Positions 45,204 through 60,460 of a DNA stretch of 64,000 nucleotides are shown one piece after another (positions within the stretch are counted from its first letter, which is position 1; each line of letters begins with the position of its first letter). Location of the stretch: positions 133,038 to 197,037 of the forward strand of contig CAXXPV010000007.1 in assembly GCA_963675935.2 (NCBI GenBank). The letters run 5' to 3'. Under the pieces are notes generated by a model that saw only the letters and a program-made list of their open reading frames with translations, had not been told where the DNA came from and searched no databases. Source of the DNA: Thermoguttaceae bacterium (GTDB taxonomy: Bacteria > Planctomycetota > Planctomycetia > Pirellulales > Thermoguttaceae). The position numbers were made by a program, and so were the translations under genes.

Positions 45204-46355
45204 ATGTCTTCATCCGTCGCCGCACCGCAGCAGTTCCTGGGCACGCACCAGGAGTTGGAAATCGACAAGCTCTTTCGGGCCGTCGTGAAACTTTCGGGCA
45301 GCGACTTGCACCTGAAGGTCGATCAGCCGCCGATCGTCCGCGTCAACGGCACCCTCCGGCCCTTGAATCGCCCTCCGGTCAACGACGAAGAAATGGTGCA
45401 GTTGATCTTCCCGATGATCAACATGCAGGAGCGGCGGAAGCGGATTTTCGAGGAGGACGGCGGCGTCGACTTCGCCTACGTGATCGACCTGGACGGCAAG
45501 AAGTGGCGATTTCGCGTCAACGTATTGCAGCAGCTTGGGCACGTCGGCCTGGTCGCCCGGTGCGTGAAGAACACCGTCCCCGATTTCGAGCATCTTTTTC
45601 TCCCGCCGTCGCTTTCCGAGTTGTGCAAGTTTTCGCAGGGGATGATTTTGCTGGCGGGCATCACCGGCTCGGGCAAGAGCACCACGATCGCCTCGATGCT
45701 CGACTGGATCAACCATCGCTACCGCAAGCACGTGCTGACGCTGGAAGACCCGATCGAGTTCACGTTCACCGACGACAAGTGCCTGATCAACCAGCGTGAG
45801 ATCGGCATGGACGTGAAGGATTTCATGACCGGCATGAAGCACGCGGTGCGTGAAGACCCCGACGTGATGCTGGTGGGCGAAATGCGCGACCGCGAAACAT
45901 TCGAGACGGCGATTCAGGCGGCGGAGACCGGGCACTTGGTGTTCGGAACGATCCACGCCTCGACCGCGCCGAGCACCATCGGCCGCATTTTGGACCTTTT
46001 CCCCCAGGGCATGCACACGGCCATCCGCAGCGCGCTGGTGTTCAATATGAAGGCAATTATCGCGCAGAAACTGCTGCCGTCGATCAAGCCGGGCGTCGGC
46101 CGCGTGCCGACCTGCGAGATTATGACGTTCTCGCCGACGATCCGTAAACTGCTTCTCGAGGGGCAAGACGAAAAACTGGCCGACGCCGTCCGCATCAGCA
46201 AGGACGACGGCATGCAGGACTTCACCATGAGTCTGAAAGACCTGGTGGAACGAGACATGATCGACCGACCCACGGCGTTCGAGGTGGCCCCGAACGCCGA
46301 GGCTCTCAAGATGGCGTTGAAGGGCATTGACCTCCGTGAAGCCGGAATTCTGTGA
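45204..46355 (+). CDS. pilT: type IV pilus retraction ATPase PilT
   Basis: Intact Walker A GITGSGKSTT, Asp box LTLEDPIEF, Walker B DPDVMLVGEMRD, and His box TGHLVFGTIHAS. Confidence 0.9.
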   Translation: MSSSVAAPQQFLGTHQELEIDKLFRAVVKLSGSDLHLKVDQPPIVRVNGTLRPLNRPPVNDEEMVQLIFPMINMQERRKRIFEEDGGVDFAYVIDLDGKKWRFRVNVLQQLGHVGLVARCVKNTVPDFEHLFLPPSLSELCKFSQGMILLAGITGSGKSTTIASMLDWINHRYRKHVLTLEDPIEFTFTDDKCLINQREIGMDVKDFMTGMKHAVREDPDVMLVGEMRDRETFETAIQAAETGHLVFGTIHASTAPSTIGRILDLFPQGMHTAIRSALVFNMKAIIAQKLLPSIKPGVGRVPTCEIMTFSPTIRKLLLEGQDEKLADAVRISKDDGMQDFTMSLKDLVERDMIDRPTAFEVAPNAEALKMALKGIDLREAGIL

Positions 46356-46358
46356 TTT

Positions 46359-48245
46359 ATGATGAAACTATGCGGATTCATGCCGAAATGTTTATCCGGC
46401 GGGCTTGCCCGCCGCGTTTGGGATCGCCACTCCGCGCGGCGAGCAAGCTCGTCGGCTAAACGAGGCGATGCTGCGAACGCGAACCTGTGCATCCGCCTCG
46501 CCGCGGCGGCCGTCGCGCTGATCGCCGTGTTCGGTTTCGGCGCCGCCTCGCTTTGGGCGGCCGAAACGTGGTCGGCTTTCCCGCTAGACCCGAAGAATTA
46601 CCGAGGGCCGGGCTTCTATTTCAGCCTGCCTAAGATTCTCGCTTGTTTCCTCCTGTTCCTGCTTTGGGTCAAAACGACCGACTGGGTCAGCATCGATTGC
46701 CAGGAGATCAAGCTGGACTATCTGCGTTGGAACCCGATCGTCGCGGGAACTTTTTTCGTGGCGTTCATTTTGGTGTGGCTGATTCCCTCGTTTTGGATCG
46801 CGTTTCCGCTGCTGGTCGTCGCCTACGTCGCCCCACTGGCCGGTTATATTGTCTATCGAAACTCGAAGGTCGAGAACAACCAGCGTGTGCTTACGCCCGA
46901 ACATCTAAGGTATTGGTTCGCCACGAATTTGAACAAAATGGGCGCGAAGATCGAGGTGGAGAAGAAGGATCCGCACGAGGCCGGCCCTCCGATCAAGGTT
47001 TCCGCCCGAAGCGGCATCGACGAGCGGACTGACAGCGCCCGGCTTCTGTTGGCCCGCCAATCGCCGGGGCTGCTGACCGCGCGGGAGATTCTGGCCGATG
47101 GGCTGGCTGTTCGCGCGTCGGCCGTCATGCTCGATTTCGCGCAGCAAGGCGTGGCGGTTCGCACGATGATCGACGGCGTGTGGATCGCCCGCGAAGGTGT
47201 CGGCCGCGATGTCGGCGATCCCGCGATCGAGTCGCTCAAGTTGCTCTGCGGTCTGAATCCGCAGGACCGTCAGAGCCGTCAGACGGGCGGTTTTTCGGTC
47301 GAATACGAATCGAAGAGTTACGAAGCCACGCTCGTCTCGCAGGGCACTCCGACCGGCGAGCGCGCCCTGGTGCAATTCGTCGAGGGGAAGATTCCCCTGC
47401 GGTCGCTCGATGATTTGGGGATGCGAACGAAACTGCAAGAGCAGCTTCGCGAGGCCCTCAACAAGACGCAGGGTTTCGTTCTACTGTCGGCCATTCCCGG
47501 CGGTGGATTGCGCAGCACCTCAGACGCGGTGCTGCACACCTGCGACCGTTTCACTCGCGAGTTCGCCACCCTCGAAGAGGAAACCAGTCGTTACCAGGCG
47601 GTGGAGAACATCGCGCTGACAACCTACAAGGCGGCCGACGGCGTTTCGCCCATCGACGTGCTGCCGAAGTTCTTCCGCACCGAGCCGGACGTCGCGGTGG
47701 TTCGCGATCTGACCGACGGCGACATGGTGGAATTGCTGTGCGAGGAGATTCCCGACAACCGGCTGATCATCAGCACGATTCGCGCGAAGGACTGCGCGGA
47801 GGCGTTGTTGCGGGTGCTGGCCTTGGGTGTGCCGGCCGACACGCTGGCCAAGTCGGTCACGGCGGTGATGAATCAGCGGTTGGTCCGCAAGCTGTGCGAC
47901 TCGTGCAAGGAGGCCTACGCTCCGGCGCCGCAAATTTTGCAGCAATTGGGCATTCCCGAGGGACGGGTCCAGGCTTTTTACCGGCCGTTCCAGCCGAATC
48001 CCGAGGAGCCGAAGGAACCGTGCCAGGCTTGCGGCGCGATCGGCTACCTGGGCCGCACGGCGATTTTCGAGTTGCTGGTTGTCGGCGACGCGGTTCGCCA
48101 GGCGTTGACCACGAATCCCACGCTCGAATCCGTGCGTCAGGCCGCCCGGCGCGACGGCATGAAGACATTCCAGGAAGAGGGCGTTTTGTTGGTGGCGAAG
48201 GGCACGACTTCGCTGCCGGAGTTGATGAGAGTGTTGAAACAATAG
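46359..48245 (+). CDS. PilB/GspE-family paralog with N-terminal multi-TM domain and degenerate ATPase motifs (probable pseudo-ATPase)
   Basis: The C-terminal two thirds are collinear with GspE/PilB, including the tetracysteine CDSC...CQAC. The catalytic motifs are changed: Walker A is AIPGGGLRST, the Asp box TLEEETS, Walker B EPDVAVVRDLTD and the His box DNRLIISTIRA. The first 170 aa contain several hydrophobic helices. Confidence 0.7.
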   Translation: MMKLCGFMPKCLSGGLARRVWDRHSARRASSSAKRGDAANANLCIRLAAAAVALIAVFGFGAASLWAAETWSAFPLDPKNYRGPGFYFSLPKILACFLLFLLWVKTTDWVSIDCQEIKLDYLRWNPIVAGTFFVAFILVWLIPSFWIAFPLLVVAYVAPLAGYIVYRNSKVENNQRVLTPEHLRYWFATNLNKMGAKIEVEKKDPHEAGPPIKVSARSGIDERTDSARLLLARQSPGLLTAREILADGLAVRASAVMLDFAQQGVAVRTMIDGVWIAREGVGRDVGDPAIESLKLLCGLNPQDRQSRQTGGFSVEYESKSYEATLVSQGTPTGERALVQFVEGKIPLRSLDDLGMRTKLQEQLREALNKTQGFVLLSAIPGGGLRSTSDAVLHTCDRFTREFATLEEETSRYQAVENIALTTYKAADGVSPIDVLPKFFRTEPDVAVVRDLTDGDMVELLCEEIPDNRLIISTIRAKDCAEALLRVLALGVPADTLAKSVTAVMNQRLVRKLCDSCKEAYAPAPQILQQLGIPEGRVQAFYRPFQPNPEEPKEPCQACGAIGYLGRTAIFELLVVGDAVRQALTTNPTLESVRQAARRDGMKTFQEEGVLLVAKGTTSLPELMRVLKQ

Positions 48246-51362: not shown

Positions 51363-51989
51363 ATGAACGCTCGGAGCGACGGCACTTGGCGCGGCGCGAT
51401 CGAGCCCGGCTCCGTCTCCTCGACGCTTTTGGAACAAATCCGCGCCCGCCGGCCCGAGGCCTGGCGCCGCCTGGTCGATCTCTACGGCCCGGTCGTCTAT
51501 CGCTGGTGTCGGCAACTCGGCGTGGCGCGGGCCGACGCGGCCGACGTGGTCCAAGACGTGTTCGCCGCCGTGGCCGCCGGGTTGGATCGGTTTCGACGCG
51601 ACGGCCCGCAACACAGTTTTGGCGCATGGCTGCGCACCATCGCCCGGAGCAAGGTCGGCGATCATTTCCGACGCTGTCGCGGCCATCTCGGCGCGGAAGG
51701 CGGCACCGACGCCCAGCAGCGGTGGCTCAGTCTTCCGGAGTCGGCCGAGGAGTCCTCTTCGCGCGACGCCCGGCTCGACGTGGACTCGCGTTTCGTCCAT
51801 CGCGCGCTCGACGTGGTTCGGGCGGAGTTCGAGCCGCGCACGTGGGACGCTTTTTGGCGCGTGGTGGTCGATGGCCTTGCGCCGGGCGACGTGGCCGATG
51901 CGTTGGCGATGAGTCTTCCGGCGGTCTATCAGGCGAAATCCCGCGTGTTGCGCCGGCTTCGACGCGAATGGAACGACGCGGGCGAATGA
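51363..51989 (+). CDS. ECF-type RNA polymerase sigma factor (sigma-70 family)
   Basis: Region 2: WRRLVDLYGPVVYRWCRQLGVARADAADVVQDVFAAV...FGAWLRTIARSKVGDHFRR. Region 4: ALAMSLPAVYQAKSRVLRRLR. Confidence 0.85.
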   Translation: MNARSDGTWRGAIEPGSVSSTLLEQIRARRPEAWRRLVDLYGPVVYRWCRQLGVARADAADVVQDVFAAVAAGLDRFRRDGPQHSFGAWLRTIARSKVGDHFRRCRGHLGAEGGTDAQQRWLSLPESAEESSSRDARLDVDSRFVHRALDVVRAEFEPRTWDAFWRVVVDGLAPGDVADALAMSLPAVYQAKSRVLRRLRREWNDAGE

Positions 51990-52003
51990 GCCGCAAAAAT
52001 GTG

Positions 52004-52088
52004 ATTGTTCAGCCGGCGAACTTGTTCGCCGCGTTTTTCGTCGAGATCGTCGATTATTCGCAGCGAACAAGTTCGCCGGCTAAACAAT
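52004..52088. repeat. 26-bp-stem hairpin directly downstream of the sigma gene
   Basis: attgttcagccggcgaacttgttcgc (52004-52029) pairs with gcgaacaagttcgccggctaaacaat (52063-52088) with 1 mismatch; 33-nt loop. Confidence 0.8.
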
Positions 52089-52329
52089 GGTGGAAAATGG
52101 CAAAAATGCTGTCAGACGCCCGCGTTAGACATTATAGTGATCGCGTCAAAATAGCTTGACTATTTTTTGGAACACTAATCCCCACTAATTGTCACTAATA
52201 GAAAGAGAATTAGCGAAGATTAGCGAAGATTAGTGTTCCGGGTGTTGTTTTTGAGATGTTGTAAAAATTGATCAAGTTATTATGACGCATCATCCCGTCC
52301 ATCCGGTCGTAGGCTGAAAGGATAACGCC

Positions 52330-55300
52330 ATGCCGTCCGTGGAATGCCCGAAACGCGACGAACTACTCGATTATCTCGCCGGCAAAATGCCGGACGACGC
52401 CTCCGATTCGGTTGCCGAGCATCTGGAATCTTGCACGGAGTGCCAGGCGGAACTGGCCACGCTTTCGGATGTCGAGGACACGCTGGTGGCCCGACTTCGC
52501 GGGGCGAACGTCGCCGACCCGTTTTTGGACGAGTCGGAATGCGGGCGGGCGGTTCTTCAAGCCAAGGGGGGAAAAGGGGACAGTCCCCATTTGTGCGAAG
52601 CACCCGAAGGGCCGTTCCGGCAAATGGGGACTGTCCCCTTTTCCCCGGAACCGTCCGAAACGTCGCTGCCGGGCCAGCTTGGCGAATATCGCCCTATCGA
52701 ACGGCTCGGCGCCGGCGGCATGGGCGCGGTCTACCGTGCCCTACATAGCCGGCTCGACCGCGTCGTCGCCCTGAAGGTTTTGCCCCGGGCGCGAACCGAC
52801 GACCCGCGGGCCATCGTGCGTTTCGAGCGCGAAATGAAGGCCATCGGACGCCTCGACGATCCGCACATCGTTCGGGCTTACGACGCCCGCGAGATCGACG
52901 GCCGGCTCGTGCTGGTCATGGAATTTGTCGAAGGGCTGGACCTCGGCAAGATCGTCCGCCGGCTAGGCAGCGTTCCGGCAGCCGACGCCAGCGAGCTTGC
53001 CCGGCAGGCGGCGCTCGGGCTGCAGGCCGCCCACGAACACGGCATGGTCCACCGTGATGTAAAACCGTCGAACCTGATGCTGACGCCCGAGGGTGTTGTC
53101 AAGGTGCTCGATCTGGGCTTGGCGCGATTCCAACTTGTGCCGGACGGGGGACTGTCCCAATTTTCGCTGCCGCAGGACTCTCCTTTGCCGATTGACCCAG
53201 CCGCGAAAATGGGACTGTCCCCTTCCTCGCAGCATGACGCCCAGCGGGAAAAGGGGACAGGCACCGTCGCCGCAAACCTTATCGGCAGTGAAAACCAGAC
53301 CGGGCGACGGAGCCAGTCCCCTTTTCCCGACGACGAAGCGACCGACACGGGCCAGGCGATGGGCACGGCCGACTACATGGCCCCGGAGCAGGCGGCCGAC
53401 AGTCACGCGGTCGATATCCGGGCCGACGTTTACAGTCTCGGGGCCACGCTCTACAAGTTGCTTTCCGGCCATGCGCCGTTCGACGCGCCGGGCCAGCAGG
53501 GTACGTTCGAGAAGCTGCTGGCCCATCGTCAAACGCCGCTGCCGCCGATCCGTCGCTATTGTCCCGACATTCCGGCGGGCCTTGTCGCGGTGGTCGAGCG
53601 GATGCTATCGAAAGACCCGGCAGCCCGCTACGCGACGCCGCTTGAAGCGTCCGAGGCGCTCGCGCCGTTTTGCATCGGGGCCGATTTGCCGGCGTTGTTG
53701 CGCCGGGCGATGGAGGCGAAAGCGGAGATTGCCTCACCAAAACCGCTCGCGGTTTCGCAACGACGGAAGCCGCGTCTTTCTCATGCGATTGTTCTTCTTT
53801 TGGTCGGCGTCTTCTGCTTTGCCGCGGGCGTTTTGATTACGATCACGAAAGACGGAAAGCAGATGAGCGTTGAAGTCCCCTTGGAGAGTACCACACGGAT
53901 CGGCGCAGACAGGAAGGTTGACGTGACGTTGCCCGGCGAGACCAAACGTCCTGCTTCCACTGCGGCGACGATTGGCAAATCGCCACAAAACACCGCTCTC
54001 GAATTTGAAATTGCAAGAGTTGCCGCCGAATTGGCCGCGCAACAGGCGCTTCTGGAGAGCGTGGACAAGAACAAGCCGCCTCGCGATGAATACCTCGCCT
54101 TGATCGCAAACGATCCTATCGCGAAGCGACTGGATGCGGAAGTCGCATTGAAGAGAGCAGACTTGGAGGCCGAAAAGAATGCCGTTCCAAGTTCCAATAG
54201 CGAGATCAGCCCCATCGTCGAGCGCACTCGCAAGGAATTTCTAACGCTGAGCAAACTTTACGACGAACGTTGCCACGAGCTGGCGCAAAAGGCTCGCGAT
54301 AACGAGCGTTCGCGAATTACCAACGAAATTGTGAGGCTTGCGGCGGAGTTGACGAGTTTGCAGCAGCAAGAGAAACAACAACCGATTCCGCAAGCGGTGG
54401 CGTCTGCGACACGTTTACCGCCCGTGGTTACGGTTGCCCATCCAACGGTCCGCGAAATCACCGACCATTTCGACTGTGCCGGCCGCATCCAGCCGATCCA
54501 AACGGCGGAGGTTCGACCGCAGGCAAACGGCCGCCTGACGAAGGTTCATTTCCAGGTGGGCGCGATGGTGAAGAAGGGCGACGTGCTGATGGAAATGTCC
54601 TCGGCCGAAGCGACGCCGACTGCGAAAATCACCGCCCCGATCGACGGTCGGATCAGCCAAATTGTGCCGCTTACGATTGGAAAGCTCATTACGGCCGACA
54701 GCGAAGAGCCTTTGGCCACGATCGTTTCGCTCGATTCGGTGTATGTTTGTTTTCCCGTTGACCAGAACACGGTTTTGCAATTACGGCGCAAGATGAAGCC
54801 AAACGCGCCGCTTACGGTTTTGTGCGGCGCGGCGGCCAACAACGAAGATTTTCCTTACCAAGGCAAGGTCGAGTCGGTCGATGTGCCCGTGAGTCCCGAC
54901 ATCGGCGCGGCCCAATGGCGCGCCGCGATTGTCAACAAGGACGGTTCGCTGCTGCCGGGCATGTTTGTCCGCGTGCGGCTGCTTACGGGCGCGCCCCGCA
55001 AGGCGTTGCTGATTCCCATGCAGGCGGTTAGCCGAACGGATCGAGGAGAACCTTCCGTTTTTGTGGCGAAGCAAGTTGCCAATCCTGGTCAATATGGCGC
55101 ACACAACATCGTCGAACGCCGCATAGTCAAACTCGGACAAGCAGAAAAGAAGAATCTGTGGGTCGTGGAGGAAGGGCTGACTGAGGGCGATAGCGTCGTA
55201 GTGTCGAATTCGGAAAACTTGCGCCCTGACATGATTATCTCCCCGATGGAACAGCCACCCACCGGGCCTATTTTCCAATTCGGCCCGATTGCCGAGAAAT

Positions 55301-58300
55301 TTTTGGACGTTGTGAGCGACGGCAACGGTGGGCAAGGGCTTAGACTTGATCTGCTCGGCGGCCGTGTCGTCGATCTGCCGAAAGGCTTTCATCGCCAGGG
55401 AGACAAGTTGCAGGATCTCTGGTGCGCCGATAATTGCATCGACGTGTTTTTTTCGTCCACGGAGACTCTCAATCCCAATTCCGTCAATCGCCCGCTTCTG
55501 TTGGTCTCCTGTCGGAAGCCCGCGGGAATTTTTACCAAACGATTGGAAGACGTGACCAACGCAGATGTCTACAATGCCTACGTTCGCTTGAAAGACGCCC
55601 CAGGCTTCAAAACTTGCGCGATTGCGGGCTTTCCGATTGTATTTGCCGCCGAAACGAGCAATGGCGACGTGCATATCGTGGAAGCCAGCGGTTTTGTGGA
55701 TGGCAAGAACCGCGTGAAGGTTCGGTACATGTTGTCGCAACCGCAACAAGCCAAGGCATCGAACTCCGTGGATGCACCGGCCGTCAACTCCGCCGCGGAC
55801 CTGAAGGCCCTGCAAGGCCCGTGGAAAGTCGTCCGCGTGGAAAAGGGAAAGGACGCTGACTCCTCTTGGCAAAGAATCCTTGGATACGATTTCGGGGCCA
55901 CGGACCCTGCCGCCGTCAATCGCTTCGACTTCGAAGAAAACATGCTGAAAGTCATGGCTTTCTCGCAAGGCTCCCTATGCGAGTTTCACTACCGCATCGA
56001 TCCAACAGCGACGGCCAAGGCCATCGATTTTTCCCACGGCTCCTTCGCCGCCAACAAGGAAGGTGACTTGGGCGCGGTCGGCATTTATCAGCTCGACGGT
56101 GATCGATTGAAGATTTGCCTGACGCGATACATGCTTTCGCTGAAGACCGACCAACGTCCCAAGCAATTCGCCGTCGCGCCCGGCTCGTCGGACATTCTGT
56201 TTACCCTCGAACGATTTTCTCTTCCAGAAGACTACAAAGTAATCCAGGACACATGGTCGCATTACTGGGCGGTGGTCAGTCAGATCGACGATGGGAAACC
56301 CATCCCGGCGGAAAAACTCCGTACAAGGGAATGTCTGTTTCAGGGCAACTCCGCATTCTGGATACACGATCTGAATCCCCAAGGATTATCTCACCACGAG
56401 ATAGCCAGAGGTCAGTACGTTCTCGATGCGGCGAAGCAGCCGAAAGAACTTTCGGTCTTCGATTATGGAGAATCGAGAGAGCAAGACCTCCACGGCATCT
56501 ACAAGCTCGATGGCGAGCGGCTGACCATTGCCTATCGCAAGGGCGGCCAACGACCGGCGACGTTCGAGTCGAAGCCCGGTTCCGGCGTCACGTTGTTGGA
56601 GTGTCGCAAGACAAAACGGCCGAGGCCGGCGCCAATCGCCGACGCCGAAAGCAACACGGGAATGGGCCTAATCAACAAAATAGGGACGCCGGGCGGCGGA
56701 ATGGGCGGCGGCCCGACGGCTACCGTCAACTCCGCCGCCGAATTCAAGGCGTTGCAAGGCTCCTGGAAGGTCGTGCGTGTCGAGAAGGAAAAGGACGCCG
56801 AGGCATCCTGGCCCATGCAGGGCAGAAACATGAGCGTCGCCAAGCTGGATCGCCTGCATTGCAGCGACAACTATCTGGACCTTGTAAGCTTGCAGGACGG
56901 CTCCGCCGCAACCTTGCGCTATCGCATCGACCCGGCGGCATCGCCCAAAACGATCGATCTTTTTGAACAAGGTCAGGGCGACGAGATTGGAGTCGCGGTT
57001 GCGCTCGGTTGCTATGAGGTTAAGGGCGACCGATTGACGATTCGATTGGCAAGATTCCTGCCCGTCGTGAAGGGCAATCAGCGACCGGGGAGCGTTGGCG
57101 ACAAGTCGGCTTCCGGCTCCATTCTGTTCCAGCTCGAACGCCATCAGCCTTCCGAGGACGAGAAAGCGATTCAAGGCAATTGGACCATCGCCGACCTGAC
57201 CGAGGACGGCAAGGTTCGGACCGAAGGAAATCTCGGTCCCAGAAAAATTCGGTTTACGGATGAGTTTTTCAACGTCGAATCGGTTTTTTCACCGGAAACA
57301 GTCAGGGATTTGTATTACGGCGTCTTTGCCCTGGATCCGCACGGCACGCGGGAGTCGAACACTTCTGTGCGGATTGCAAACACTGACAAGCGATTCATTC
57401 GCGTGAATAAGTCCATTACCCTTTTCAACAACCGTCTGGAGATTGACCCGGACGGCGATGGGCCGACAAAACTGGAGAAACTGCATGGCATCTACAAGTT
57501 CGATGGCGACCGCCTGACCATTGCCTATCGCAAGGGTGACAAACCGCCCGAGATGTATGAGTCGAAGCCCGGCTCGGACGTTACGTTGTTGACGCTCAAA
57601 CGAGGCGTTCCGACAGAATCGACCGGCGGAATTGGCATGCCAGGAATGGGCATGCCGGGTGGCGGAATGATGATGCCGGCGCAGCCCAAGGAGCCGCCGC
57701 TGCAATTTGGCCCGGTGGTTGAGCGGGCGATCAACACATGGCGCGAACACGCGGGAAACGATGCGATTGATCTGGTGGGCGGAAAACTCATCAATCTGCC
57801 AAAAGACTTCAGCACATTATCGGCCGAAAAGCAGGGCAAATGGTGCGAGGATAACAACGTCGATCTGGCAAACATGGACCTTGATTTTGACCTCGGCACT
57901 CCAAAGACTCGCAATAAGATGGCTCTTGTGCCCGAGGGAATGAAGCTCGCCGCGATCTGGGTTGAACGATGGAATAACGATGTCACCCGCGAAGAACTGT
58001 GCGCAGCGCTCGCATCGGCAACGCCGGGTAAAGTGGTCAGTCCCAACGGCGGCTTTATTTCGGAGCCTGTGTCCGTGATCGATCGAAAAGGCGTCGTTTA
58101 CTTCGCAATGGAGGGCGACCATGTGCTGCCCGCCACGTTCGCGTTCCAAACTCGTAAAGGCGAATTGGGCCTCATGCAGGTGCTTCGCTACACGGAACAA
58201 CCAATCGGGCTGCGGATTCGCTATAAGCTGGCGAAGCCGGCGACGGAAGCCCCCGACATGCAAAAAACCGACGACCCGGCGGCCGCCGTCTCGGCGTTCC

Positions 58301-59106
58301 TGGAGGCAGTTCGATCCGGCAACGAGAAGATGGCCGCCAAGATGCTCAGCTCGCGGGCCAGGGAAAAGTCCGCGAATCGCTCCGTCACGCCGCCGGCCAG
58401 CAGCACCGCGAAATTCACGGTCGGCAAAGTAGAGTATGTAAACGACGACGGGGCGCGAGTCGCCACGACCTGGACCGATCTCGATGCGAATGGGCAACTC
58501 AAAACCGACGAGGCGATCTGGGTGATGCGTCGAGAGCACGGCGGCTGGCGGATTACCGGCGTGGCCGCGGCGGTCTTTCCAGGTGAGCCGCCGGTATTAC
58601 TCAACTTTGAAGACCCGGAAGACATGTGGCGGAAACAGCAGTGGATACGGGAGGAGATGCGTCGGAGGACGGAGAAGCCGCAGGAAGTGCCTACGCCACC
58701 GGACGGTGCTCGCAAGCACACCGCCGCGCGCAAAATTGGACTCGACGCCTTGGACAACAAGGATGCACACGAGTTTGTGGAAGTGTTGTTTCCTTTTCCA
58801 TCCGGCAAGGAAACGCCGTGGAATCAAGTTCAGCAATTTCTGGCCGACTCGAAACCATTTCTCGGACCGGACGGCAAGTGTTCGTTTTCCTCCACGGGAA
58901 TGATCGTTACCGATGAAGCCGGTCGTATTCGGAAAATCCGCGACCAAGTCAAACCGATTGGATCGGCCGCCGTGCCGAAAGTTAAGACGCCCGCAGTCAA
59001 TCCCGCAGCCGAAGCGAAAACGTCGAAAGCGACGACGAAAGACAAGCCGGATAGTTCCGACAAGCAATCGGTCCTGTCTCCGTTGCGCGAAAAAACCGCT
59101 CGGTAG
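52330..59106 (+). CDS. 2,258-aa multidomain protein: zf-HC2 anti-sigma motif, Ser/Thr kinase, TM helix, coiled coil, HlyD-like membrane-fusion domain, two paralogous X modules, four TIGR03067-like domains, NTF2-like domain
   Basis: aa 31-38 HLESCTEC (H-x3-C-x2-C). aa 120-447 kinase (GAGGMGAVY, VALK, HRDVKPSN, DLG, YMAPE). aa 485-505 TM (AIVLLLVGVFCFAAGVLITI). aa 697-965 MFP-like (VTVAHP...AEVRPQANGRLTKVHFQVGAMVKKGDVLMEM...ITAPIDGRI...LLPGMFVRVRL...VVEEGLTEGDSVVV). Four domains end in GIY(K/Q)(L/F)DG(D/E)RL..., RP..FES/KPGS and ...L.R. Confidence 0.85.
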   Translation: MPSVECPKRDELLDYLAGKMPDDASDSVAEHLESCTECQAELATLSDVEDTLVARLRGANVADPFLDESECGRAVLQAKGGKGDSPHLCEAPEGPFRQMGTVPFSPEPSETSLPGQLGEYRPIERLGAGGMGAVYRALHSRLDRVVALKVLPRARTDDPRAIVRFEREMKAIGRLDDPHIVRAYDAREIDGRLVLVMEFVEGLDLGKIVRRLGSVPAADASELARQAALGLQAAHEHGMVHRDVKPSNLMLTPEGVVKVLDLGLARFQLVPDGGLSQFSLPQDSPLPIDPAAKMGLSPSSQHDAQREKGTGTVAANLIGSENQTGRRSQSPFPDDEATDTGQAMGTADYMAPEQAADSHAVDIRADVYSLGATLYKLLSGHAPFDAPGQQGTFEKLLAHRQTPLPPIRRYCPDIPAGLVAVVERMLSKDPAARYATPLEASEALAPFCIGADLPALLRRAMEAKAEIASPKPLAVSQRRKPRLSHAIVLLLVGVFCFAAGVLITITKDGKQMSVEVPLESTTRIGADRKVDVTLPGETKRPASTAATIGKSPQNTALEFEIARVAAELAAQQALLESVDKNKPPRDEYLALIANDPIAKRLDAEVALKRADLEAEKNAVPSSNSEISPIVERTRKEFLTLSKLYDERCHELAQKARDNERSRITNEIVRLAAELTSLQQQEKQQPIPQAVASATRLPPVVTVAHPTVREITDHFDCAGRIQPIQTAEVRPQANGRLTKVHFQVGAMVKKGDVLMEMSSAEATPTAKITAPIDGRISQIVPLTIGKLITADSEEPLATIVSLDSVYVCFPVDQNTVLQLRRKMKPNAPLTVLCGAAANNEDFPYQGKVESVDVPVSPDIGAAQWRAAIVNKDGSLLPGMFVRVRLLTGAPRKALLIPMQAVSRTDRGEPSVFVAKQVANPGQYGAHNIVERRIVKLGQAEKKNLWVVEEGLTEGDSVVVSNSENLRPDMIISPMEQPPTGPIFQFGPIAEKFLDVVSDGNGGQGLRLDLLGGRVVDLPKGFHRQGDKLQDLWCADNCIDVFFSSTETLNPNSVNRPLLLVSCRKPAGIFTKRLEDVTNADVYNAYVRLKDAPGFKTCAIAGFPIVFAAETSNGDVHIVEASGFVDGKNRVKVRYMLSQPQQAKASNSVDAPAVNSAADLKALQGPWKVVRVEKGKDADSSWQRILGYDFGATDPAAVNRFDFEENMLKVMAFSQGSLCEFHYRIDPTATAKAIDFSHGSFAANKEGDLGAVGIYQLDGDRLKICLTRYMLSLKTDQRPKQFAVAPGSSDILFTLERFSLPEDYKVIQDTWSHYWAVVSQIDDGKPIPAEKLRTRECLFQGNSAFWIHDLNPQGLSHHEIARGQYVLDAAKQPKELSVFDYGESREQDLHGIYKLDGERLTIAYRKGGQRPATFESKPGSGVTLLECRKTKRPRPAPIADAESNTGMGLINKIGTPGGGMGGGPTATVNSAAEFKALQGSWKVVRVEKEKDAEASWPMQGRNMSVAKLDRLHCSDNYLDLVSLQDGSAATLRYRIDPAASPKTIDLFEQGQGDEIGVAVALGCYEVKGDRLTIRLARFLPVVKGNQRPGSVGDKSASGSILFQLERHQPSEDEKAIQGNWTIADLTEDGKVRTEGNLGPRKIRFTDEFFNVESVFSPETVRDLYYGVFALDPHGTRESNTSVRIANTDKRFIRVNKSITLFNNRLEIDPDGDGPTKLEKLHGIYKFDGDRLTIAYRKGDKPPEMYESKPGSDVTLLTLKRGVPTESTGGIGMPGMGMPGGGMMMPAQPKEPPLQFGPVVERAINTWREHAGNDAIDLVGGKLINLPKDFSTLSAEKQGKWCEDNNVDLANMDLDFDLGTPKTRNKMALVPEGMKLAAIWVERWNNDVTREELCAALASATPGKVVSPNGGFISEPVSVIDRKGVVYFAMEGDHVLPATFAFQTRKGELGLMQVLRYTEQPIGLRIRYKLAKPATEAPDMQKTDDPAAAVSAFLEAVRSGNEKMAAKMLSSRAREKSANRSVTPPASSTAKFTVGKVEYVNDDGARVATTWTDLDANGQLKTDEAIWVMRREHGGWRITGVAAAVFPGEPPVLLNFEDPEDMWRKQQWIREEMRRRTEKPQEVPTPPDGARKHTAARKIGLDALDNKDAHEFVEVLFPFPSGKETPWNQVQQFLADSKPFLGPDGKCSFSSTGMIVTDEAGRIRKIRDQVKPIGSAAVPKVKTPAVNPAAEAKTSKATTKDKPDSSDKQSVLSPLREKTAR
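52568..52646. repeat. perfect 26-bp inverted repeat embedded in the coding sequence (GGGGACWGTCCCC family)
   Basis: ggggaaaaggggacagtccccatttg (52568-52593) and caaatggggactgtccccttttcccc (52621-52646) are exact reverse complements. Translated in frame as ...GKGDSPHLCEAPEGPFRQMGTVPFSP... Confidence 0.9.
53146..53222. repeat. imperfect inverted repeat of the GGGGACWGTCCC family inside the kinase activation segment
   Basis: gggggactgtcccaattttcgc (53146-53167) against gcgaaaatgggactgtcccc (53203-53222). Confidence 0.75.
53246..53328. repeat. 26-bp inverted repeat (2 mismatches) of the same family inside the kinase activation segment
   Basis: gggaaaaggggacaggcaccgtcgcc (53246-53271) against ggcgacggagccagtccccttttccc (53303-53328). 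Confidence 0.8.
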
Positions 59107-60177: not shown

Positions 60178-60428
60178 AAAAGCCGCGAAGCGGCGATAGT
60201 CAATAGCCAGGGGCGTGAGGCCCTGGAACCAAAGACGGTTCATGAGTGGAAGCCCCGCAGGGGCGGCAGAAGTCACTGCCGCCGCTTCGCGGTTTTTGCG
60301 AGTCGTCTACTTTTCCCACCAGGGGCTTACGCCCCTGGCTATTGACTACCGTCCCTTCGGGACTAACAATCACCTCGACAATCACGCGCATCACCAGCCG
60401 GGGACTACCGTCCCTTCGGGACTAACAA
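60178..60428. repeat. cluster of inverted and direct repeats between ykgJ-like and hisS
   Basis: ccgcgaagcggcg (60183) pairs with cgccgcttcgcgg+ttttt (60280). gtcaatagccaggggcgtgaggccctgg (60199-60226) is inverted at 60319-60346. The direct repeat gactaccgtcccttcgggactaacaa lies at 60343-60368 and 60403-60428. Confidence 0.75.
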
Positions 60429-60460
60429 CGTGATTTGCTTACCCATTACCCACTAATCCC

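Follow-up and report, generated by a model that had tools for sequence, protein, structure and literature searches.

How is an extracytoplasmic function (ECF) sigma factor governed when the gene that follows it encodes one giant protein combining a zinc motif of the anti-sigma kind, a protein kinase and a very long extracytoplasmic region? The question is raised by a locus of a Thermoguttaceae bacterium (Planctomycetota; GenBank assembly GCA_963675935.2, contig CAXXPV010000007.1, positions 133,038 to 197,037 of the forward strand). This stretch of 64,000 nucleotides is referred to below as the window, and its own numbering is used throughout. An earlier interpretation made from the letters of the DNA (the sequence-only reading) had described an ECF sigma gene and, 340 nt downstream, an intact open reading frame (ORF) for 2,258 residues. 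This description holds: the 2,258 codons form a single frame that stays open for ∼6.8 kb, and the NCBI/ENA collection contains both exact proteins, on a contig of 286,798 bp. The giant protein is laid out as a cytoplasmic anti-sigma domain and kinase, one transmembrane helix and then ∼1,750 extracytoplasmic residues of interchangeable modules (Table 1). We think it probable that the two genes form a sigma/anti-sigma pair, the anti-sigma factor being a giant protein that crosses the membrane once, includes its own kinase and carries a mosaic sensor that evolves rapidly.

The identity of the N-terminus is central to this proposal. The isolated N-terminal region matches the Pfam family zf-HC2 with 22.9 bits (cut-off 22.2), and 42 of 50 homologous N-termini do so individually (best E value 1.9e-9). 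The H-x3-C-x2-C motif that had suggested a zf-HC2-type domain recurs at the same position in roughly 100 of the 120 top-scoring homologues and, judged by this recurrence, is not a product of chance. Across 50 diverse N-termini, G18, H31, C35 and C38 are invariant and C6, P7, L12, D50, R57 and E68 are conserved in at least 90%. The predicted fourth ligand, C6, lies about 25 residues ahead of H31, as in the class I zinc-binding anti-sigma (ZAS) pattern. In ChrR of Rhodobacter sphaeroides the ligands are H6, H31, C35 and C38, and the spacing of the putative ligands here, C6/H31/C35/C38, matches it. A family profile of the module, compared with the Protein Data Bank (PDB), matched residues 1–55 of ChrR (E = 2e-6), DdvA (1e-5), RslA (2.6e-4) and RsiW (0.014). 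With the class I ZAS proteins ChrR, RsrA, RslA and RsiW the module shares its N-terminal position and a place directly after an ECF sigma gene, and its four predicted helices may be a further likeness. These similarities support its assignment to the true class I anti-sigma domains of the ZAS type, here joined to a Hanks-type kinase and with a predicted zinc site.

The module is also widespread. Its profile retrieved 2,471 clusters at E ≤ 1e-10 from 1.84 billion representative proteins clustered at 50% identity, and the kinase signature HRDxKPxN is present in 57 of the 61 new module-bearing representatives of at least 400 residues, which indicates that this version of the anti-sigma domain is essentially a kinase appendage. 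Its position is constant whatever follows, be it a membrane-fusion protein (MFP) region, TIGR03067, WD40, LRR, secretin-N, ExbD, Poly_export or the head of SecDF. The relatives found all come from metagenome-assembled genomes (MAGs) of Planctomycetota (Planctomycetia, Pirellulaceae, Thermoguttaceae and Isosphaeraceae). The architecture is thus not unique, as had been supposed; the fusion of zinc module and kinase defines a family of thousands, dozens of which also carry MFP and TIGR03067 domains. It remains true that no characterized protein of this architecture appears in the searchable literature. In four of the proteins retrieved (P0122, P0158, P0198 and P0201) the zinc module is repeated in tandem, four or five times; in P0122 five copies with a 52-residue period precede the kinase domain, and in the other three a hydrophobic stretch lies near the C-terminus and the kinase motif is not present.

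The kinase domain scores 144.4 bits against Pkinase (cut-off 31.7; E = 5.7e-42). All of its catalytic motifs, as read earlier, can be located (G127xGxxGxV, K149, H241RDVKPSN, D261LG and A351PE), and the enzyme is apparently competent in catalysis. Taken with the HRDxKPxN of the 57 long representatives, they point to a kinase that is under selection. The single transmembrane helix was likewise borne out, and the basic SQRRKPR that precedes it predicts an N-in topology with a cytoplasmic N-terminus.

The sigma factor belongs to the ECF class. TIGR02937 (ECF) covers residues 32–202 with 61.5 bits (cut-off 42.9), Sigma70_r2 matches with E = 3e-13, and only sigma2 and sigma4 regions are present, as the ECF (group 4) model demands. 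The protein falls far below the cut-offs of the planctomycete sigma subfamilies TIGR02984 and TIGR02989 of NCBIfam. Its region 2.2 reads D58-A-A-D61-VVQDVF and contains no Ser or Thr; among 49 members of the sigma family (the window protein and 48 relatives) the two Asp residues are conserved in 41 and 44. Since the acidic D-A-A-D is kept, the sigma factor should bind core RNA polymerase and need an inhibitor. In the ECF43 sigma factors, by contrast, region 2.2 has lost the acidic DAED, and phosphorylation of a Thr located there switches them on (PMC8999054, PMC8103513). With D-A-A-D kept and no Ser or Thr at the site, the sigma factor here is not ECF43-like, and one half of an earlier suggestion falls: the sequence-only reading had joined sequestration and ECF43-style phosphorylation in one polypeptide, and the union of sequestration with a kinase in one chain survives as the best reading, whereas the ECF43 analogy does not. 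The sigma family does share an N-terminal S-(T/I)-S-S-(S/T)-L-L patch, at residues 17–21 of the window protein, which is a possible kinase target.

The link between module and sigma factor was surveyed in 77 Planctomycetota loci with 10-kb flanks, gathered by scanning genome contigs with a 300-residue alignment of close relatives; a 95-residue N-terminal alignment was too variable. A sigma homologue is encoded upstream on the same strand for 44 of 59 informative motif-bearing kinases (41 directly, three by way of a row of kinase genes that starts with a sigma gene), compared with five of 25 motif-less kinases (Fisher p = 6e-6). Two of these five are frameshift fragments of module-bearing kinases, and the one at locus L047 keeps a zinc-less version of the module. 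The connection of the module with an upstream ECF sigma factor is therefore conserved and specific. The two also vary together: over 27 pairs, pairwise distances correlate with r = 0.77 between sigma factor and module and with r = 0.63 between sigma factor and kinase N-lobe. When the kinase is accounted for, the partial correlation of sigma factor and module is 0.58 (permutation p = 5e-4), while that of sigma factor and kinase given the module is 0.13. For published ECF/anti-sigma pairs the corresponding co-variation is 0.82, with negative controls at 0.5–0.6 (PMC7406223).

Tandem arrays deserve separate mention. At loci L060, L063, L067, L072 and L074, from Isosphaeraceae and related Planctomycetota MAGs, three to five module-bearing kinases follow one another on one strand. 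Where the start of the array is visible (L072 and L074), one sigma gene stands at its head, an arrangement that suggests several sensors converging on a single sigma factor.

A mechanism can be proposed on this basis. The anti-sigma domain would retain the co-encoded sigma factor at the inner face of the membrane. The extracytoplasmic modules would receive a signal, probably by binding a ligand or by changing their oligomeric state, and this signal would switch the kinase. The kinase might then phosphorylate the anti-sigma domain or the adjoining linker in cis, or else the N-terminal Ser/Thr patch of the sigma factor, so that the latter would be released or licensed. Such a scheme would be the cis-fused counterpart of PknB of Mycobacterium tuberculosis acting on the ZAS anti-sigma factor RshA. 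PknB phosphorylates RshA, whereupon SigH is freed (PMC8999054, PMC13147305), and both the RshA and the RseA cases resemble our proposal in that a ZAS anti-sigma factor is under the control of a Hanks kinase that phosphorylates it. In M. tuberculosis, however, PknB acts globally and is a protein apart from the anti-sigma factors, whereas here a single polypeptide would be dedicated to one neighbouring sigma factor, with phosphorylation presumably in cis.

Several observations weigh against this proposal. Fifteen module-bearing kinases, mostly from Isosphaeraceae, have no detectable sigma gene within reach. The mirror-tree correlations may be inflated, as sigma factor and module evolve at similar rates (mean distances 0.55 and 0.59) and the kinase lobe more slowly (0.32). 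The AlphaFold2 model of the module has helices at residues 9–17, 22–34, 36–58 and 64–80, and of its ten best Foldseek matches in the PDB eight are ECF anti-sigma domains solved with their sigma factors, which speaks for the proposal; its mean pLDDT is only 76, however, and the E values of these matches, at least 0.35, are not significant. Between the two genes, a terminator-like hairpin (52014–52031) and a sigma70-like promoter match (52109–52138), each a consensus match only, leave co-transcription of sigma factor and kinase not assured. Finally, a dyad search (4-mer, gap of 14–19 nt, 4-mer) upstream of 51 sigma genes revealed no shared promoter, the maximum being seven compared with five or six in shuffled controls, and no autoregulatory ECF promoter could be put forward. 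To these may be added the published view that kinase-linked ECF groups are activated by direct phosphorylation without an anti-sigma factor (PMC7826278).

This last point leads to the main rival, which retains an interaction between sigma factor and module and reverses its sense. The zinc module would act as a scaffold that docks the sigma factor for the kinase, and phosphorylation (for example at S17–S21) would activate it, giving positive control with no sequestration at all. Linkage and co-variation indicate an interaction and not its sign, the conserved Ser/Thr patch of the sigma family would offer a substrate and the published models of kinase-linked ECF factors favour activation by phosphorylation (PMC7826278, PMC8999054), yet every solved relative of the module (ChrR, RslA, RsiW and DdvA) is an inhibitor. 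Moreover, with the acidic residues of region 2.2 in place, added charge is not obviously needed for binding to core RNA polymerase. We regard the scaffold as unlikely, if worth keeping in view.

An improbable alternative is that phosphorylation does all the work. The kinase would act on the sigma factor as PknT does on EcfP, and the zinc module, perhaps a redox or dimerization zinc finger, would have nothing to do with it. The zf-HC2 match in a scan of the whole protein (18.1 bits) is indeed under the Pfam cut-off, and kinase-linked ECF groups are reported to lack anti-sigma factors (PMC7826278). Against this alternative, the module profile matches solved anti-sigma domains, the presence of the module predicts the presence of the sigma gene, the co-variation of the sigma factor is with the module and, once this has been accounted for, not with the kinase, and region 2.2 has no Ser or Thr where ECF43 carries its phosphorylation site.

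Within the proposed sigma/anti-sigma pair, the sensor part is the most changeable. In a sibling strain (L078, ena:ERZ21831265:ctg81495l), whose contig was found through the cluster representative P0139, gene order is identical and the flanks are 98.8–99.1% identical in nucleotide sequence, while the kinase gene cannot be aligned over window positions 53934–57046. The sibling gene lacks the coiled coil, the MFP region and X1, and its transmembrane helix leads almost directly into a TIGR03067 domain. It is also interrupted by an antisense ORF for a group II intron reverse transcriptase/maturase (RVT_1 + GIIM; L078 10758–12161), and the intron divides it into ORFs of 564 and 1,095 residues. These differences, together with the variable order of modules among homologues, mark the extracytoplasmic region as a rapidly rearranging mosaic. 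They also invite the suspicion that the window gene is an assembly chimera joined from paralogous TIGR03067 and X modules, or a decaying gene without function; the sibling differs exactly in the repeat-rich middle and has a broken copy, such genes carry many frameshifts in related long-read MAGs, and two palindromic elements lie inside the ORF. We consider this quite improbable: the frame is open through both junctions over its 6.8 kb, there is no break in GC content where the variable block ends on the right, domain boundaries are intact and the combination of kinase, MFP and TIGR03067 recurs in dozens of independent assemblies from several sources.

The MFP region had been read as collinear with the lipoyl and β-barrel parts of HlyD-like periplasmic adaptors, and rightly so. 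TIGR01730 matches with 162.9 bits (cut-off 94.9), and residues 694–760 and 764–974 align with residues 35–100 and 173–377 of AcrA (E = 2.5e-28). What is gone is the α-hairpin, for which three residues (761–763) stand in place of about 72 in AcrA (∼100–172); where the two MFP halves were both measurable, in 16 homologous kinases, the hairpin site keeps 48–69 residues. The region shares with AcrA and MexA the membrane-proximal (MP) strand and the lipoyl, β-barrel and MP domains. It differs from them in having no hairpin, no lipoprotein or transmembrane anchor of its own and no adjacent pump or channel genes, and in lying midway within a receptor kinase and varying between strains. The earlier observation that no pump gene lies nearby was upheld: none was found in the 64-kb window, where the next-largest ORF has 718 residues and the ORFs tested belong to polysaccharide synthesis, T2SSE or housekeeping functions, and no transporter gene was found within 10 kb of the related MFP-kinases at L001, L002, L027 and L039. 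Among homologues the MFP region may be C-terminal, follow the TIGR03067 domains or be duplicated, and it is missing from L006, a syntenic orthologue (PSP1–orf142–sigma–kinase).

The idea of an adaptor stalk bridging the envelope is therefore not supported, given the deleted hairpin, the want of a pump here and at related loci, the shuffled module order and a sibling without the block. We take the MFP block most readily for a degenerate module, acquired recently and serving in sensing or oligomerization and not in a pump, and on its own it is no evidence for a new envelope-spanning machine. Least probable of all is a working adaptor that joins an RND (resistance–nodulation–division) or ABC transporter and an outer-membrane channel whose genes lie elsewhere, coupling efflux to signalling or serving an export machine: a TIGR01730 score above cut-off, well conserved β-barrel and MP domains (the pump contacts of AcrA), hairpins of AcrA size in the 16 measurable relatives and the envelope-machine theme hinted at by the secretin-N, ExbD, Poly_export and SecDF-head domains of other family members do not outweigh the three-residue join of the lipoyl halves where a hairpin should reach a TolC-like channel, the lack of a pump gene in the window or in the 10 kb around those related MFP-kinases that were examined, the absence of the block from L006 and from a strain with ∼99% identical flanks, and its shifting position between homologues.

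Database names for these MFP-kinases can be misleading ('RND family efflux transporter MFP subunit' is an example). At L001 (2267–6175, − strand) an M56 signal transducer of the BlaR1 type carries five fused Poly_export domains and, judging from its domain content, is another reuse of envelope-machine domains in a sensor. A BNR/Ycf48-like gene is conserved 3′ of the MFP-kinases of this clade (L001 14608–16824, L002 15546–18068 and L027 17147–20185); it is not present in the window.

Table 1. Features of the sigma–kinase locus (nucleotide positions in the window; residues of the giant protein unless stated otherwise).
Feature	Position	Strand	Residues and remarks
ECF sigma gene	51363..51989	+	208 aa; Sigma70_r2 and TIGR02937; identical protein P0248 on record
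Sigma–kinase spacer	51990..52329	+	340 nt; AT-rich, 44% GC
Giant ORF	52330..59106	+	2,258 aa; anti-sigma domain, kinase, one transmembrane helix, mosaic extracytoplasmic region
Class I zinc-binding anti-sigma domain	52330..52569	+	aa 1-80; predicted ligands C6, H31, C35, C38
Palindrome 1	52568..52646	+	perfect 26-nt inverted repeat, 27-nt loop; dG -63.4, z -8.1
Hanks-type Ser/Thr kinase	52675..53679	+	aa 116-450; ~75-aa insert in activation segment
Palindrome 2	53245..53329	+	27-nt arms, 93% complementary, in activation-loop insert; dG -52.4, z -6.1
Transmembrane helix	53776..53850	+	aa 483-507; sole hydrophobic segment; basic SQRRKPR just before
Strain-variable block	53934..57046	+	aa ~535-1572; coiled coil, MFP, X1, first TIGR03067 copies
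Heptad-like helical spacer	53992..54399	+	aa ~555-690; no Pfam/NCBIfam match; homologous stretch in L005, L027
RND-type MFP module without α-hairpin	54409..55251	+	aa 694-974; MP strand, lipoyl, β-barrel, MP domains
X1	55282..55779	+	aa 985-1150; first copy of unnamed ~185-aa extracytoplasmic domain; no Pfam match
Four TIGR03067 domains	55792..57567	+	aa 1155-1281, 1296-1415, 1469-1587, 1606-1746
X2	57691..58263	+	aa 1788-1978; second copy of unnamed domain
Possible NTF2-like domain	58255..58599	+	aa 1976-2090; sub-threshold matches only
C-terminal tail	58600..59106	+	aa 2091-2258; Lys/Pro/Ala-rich end; no family match

The remaining extracytoplasmic modules are of several kinds. Four TIGR03067-like domains had been counted, and four stretches indeed match (163.3 bits; cut-off 40.15), with a Gly/Met-rich linker between the second and third copies; tandem copies fit this model of Planctomycetota proteins, a domain to which no function has been assigned. 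X1 and X2 align with 27% identity. The domain that they represent starts with 'QFGP.(I/V)E' and ends with 'R(I/V)RYKL', and is conserved in many family members. The AlphaFold model of X2 is of good quality (pLDDT 90.7, pTM 0.86), and a Foldseek search with it revealed no significant neighbour in the PDB; an HmuY-like identity was considered and set aside, as E = 0.056 and a TM-score of ∼0.4 are too weak for homology. An NTF2-like domain had also been proposed. The region can be located, and its matches to DUF4440 (17.3 bits, cut-off 25.2, E = 0.0067) and DUF4878 (13.9 bits, cut-off 24.1, E = 0.07) lend the assignment weak support.

The gene contains two in-frame palindromes that are REP/MITE-like in sequence (repetitive extragenic palindromic/miniature inverted-repeat transposable elements). 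The first lies in the linker that joins the anti-sigma domain to the kinase and encodes the peptide GKGDSPHLCEAPEGPFRQMGTVPFS. Rfam microRNA families proposed for the same stretch (52568–52646) score far under their gathering thresholds, reflect only the long perfect hairpin and were rejected. The arms translate into peptides such as GKGDSPHL.../...MGTVPFS, which recur elsewhere in the homologues P0004, P0010 and P0027. L001, L002, L005 and L027 have a core GGGACWGTCCC at this linker position; further copies of the core, in L001, L003, L014 and L027, stand away from the portion of the gene that encodes the anti-sigma domain and the kinase. These elements recall the in-frame Rickettsia palindromic elements.

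The spacer between the two genes also holds three copies of CACTAAT in an exact 10-nt phase (52173–52199), facing three copies of ATTAG(C/T)G in a 10-nt phase (52209–52235). This array looks like an operator; no such repeats were found in homologous loci. An additional CACTAAT lies at 60451, just 5′ of hisS. A 57-residue ORF between sigma factor and kinase in the sibling strain (window 51986–52159) is confined to that strain and was discarded as spurious.

The neighbouring genes are unrelated to the pair. Upstream are two T2SSE ATPases (45204–48245), CvpA, a DUF4190 protein, PSP1 and, preceding the ATPase genes, a polysaccharide-biosynthesis cluster (∼9000–44000) with glycosyltransferases, a Wzy-like polymerase, two UDP-glucose/GDP-mannose dehydrogenases, an AMP-binding enzyme, a LuxC-type acyl-CoA reductase and an F5/8 type C domain protein. 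Downstream, a CxxCxxCC-type ORF is followed by histidyl-tRNA synthetase, and in the spacer between these two are two Acido-Lenti-1 RNA motifs (RF01687) in opposite orientations (60181–60226, −, and 60319–60364, +), scoring 43 and 56.5 bits against a gathering threshold of 37.

The pairing of an ECF sigma gene with a gene for a single-pass transmembrane Hanks kinase is already known. It is common in Planctomycetes (PMC7826278, PMC8999054), where ECF59–62 and ECF217 are examples, and outside this group it is represented by ECF43 EcfP/PknT of Vibrio parahaemolyticus and EcfK/PknS of Xanthomonas citri. The kinase-linked groups have been described without an anti-sigma factor (PMC7826278); the kinase studied here itself carries one. 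Known ZAS proteins, for their part, are small and soluble or carry in addition a simple sensor domain or transmembrane segment, unlike the present protein, in which a full Hanks kinase follows in the same cytoplasmic chain and 1,750 extracytoplasmic residues come after it. No description of a zf-HC2 and kinase fusion was found in the searchable literature, where an earlier description is possible since key papers on the topic lie outside its coverage. As the literature calls the kinase-linked ECF groups anti-sigma-less, the fusion seems to have been overlooked.

ECF sigma factors are among the main signalling routes of bacteria, and Planctomycetota genomes encode dozens of them, many paired with kinases. 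It is conceivable, and we offer it tentatively, that the Ser/Thr kinases next to planctomycetal ECF genes are a large overlooked class of receptors that unite a zinc anti-sigma domain with a Hanks kinase in cis, the kinase gating the release of the sigma factor from the same polypeptide. If this is true, the class would comprise at least ∼2,500 clusters at 50% identity, and the groups concerned would shift from 'anti-sigma-less, phosphorylation-activated' to 'anti-sigma/kinase-fusion regulated'. If these kinases do carry an anti-sigma domain, the picture of how several ECF groups are regulated must be revised, with sequestration relieved by a cis-acting kinase as a testable model. The giant protein would then provide a one-protein pathway from receptor to transcription factor with a plug-and-play periplasmic sensor that differs even between strains, and such module-shuffled sensor regions, differing between strains whose flanks are ∼99% identical, bear on how bacteria diversify their sensing.

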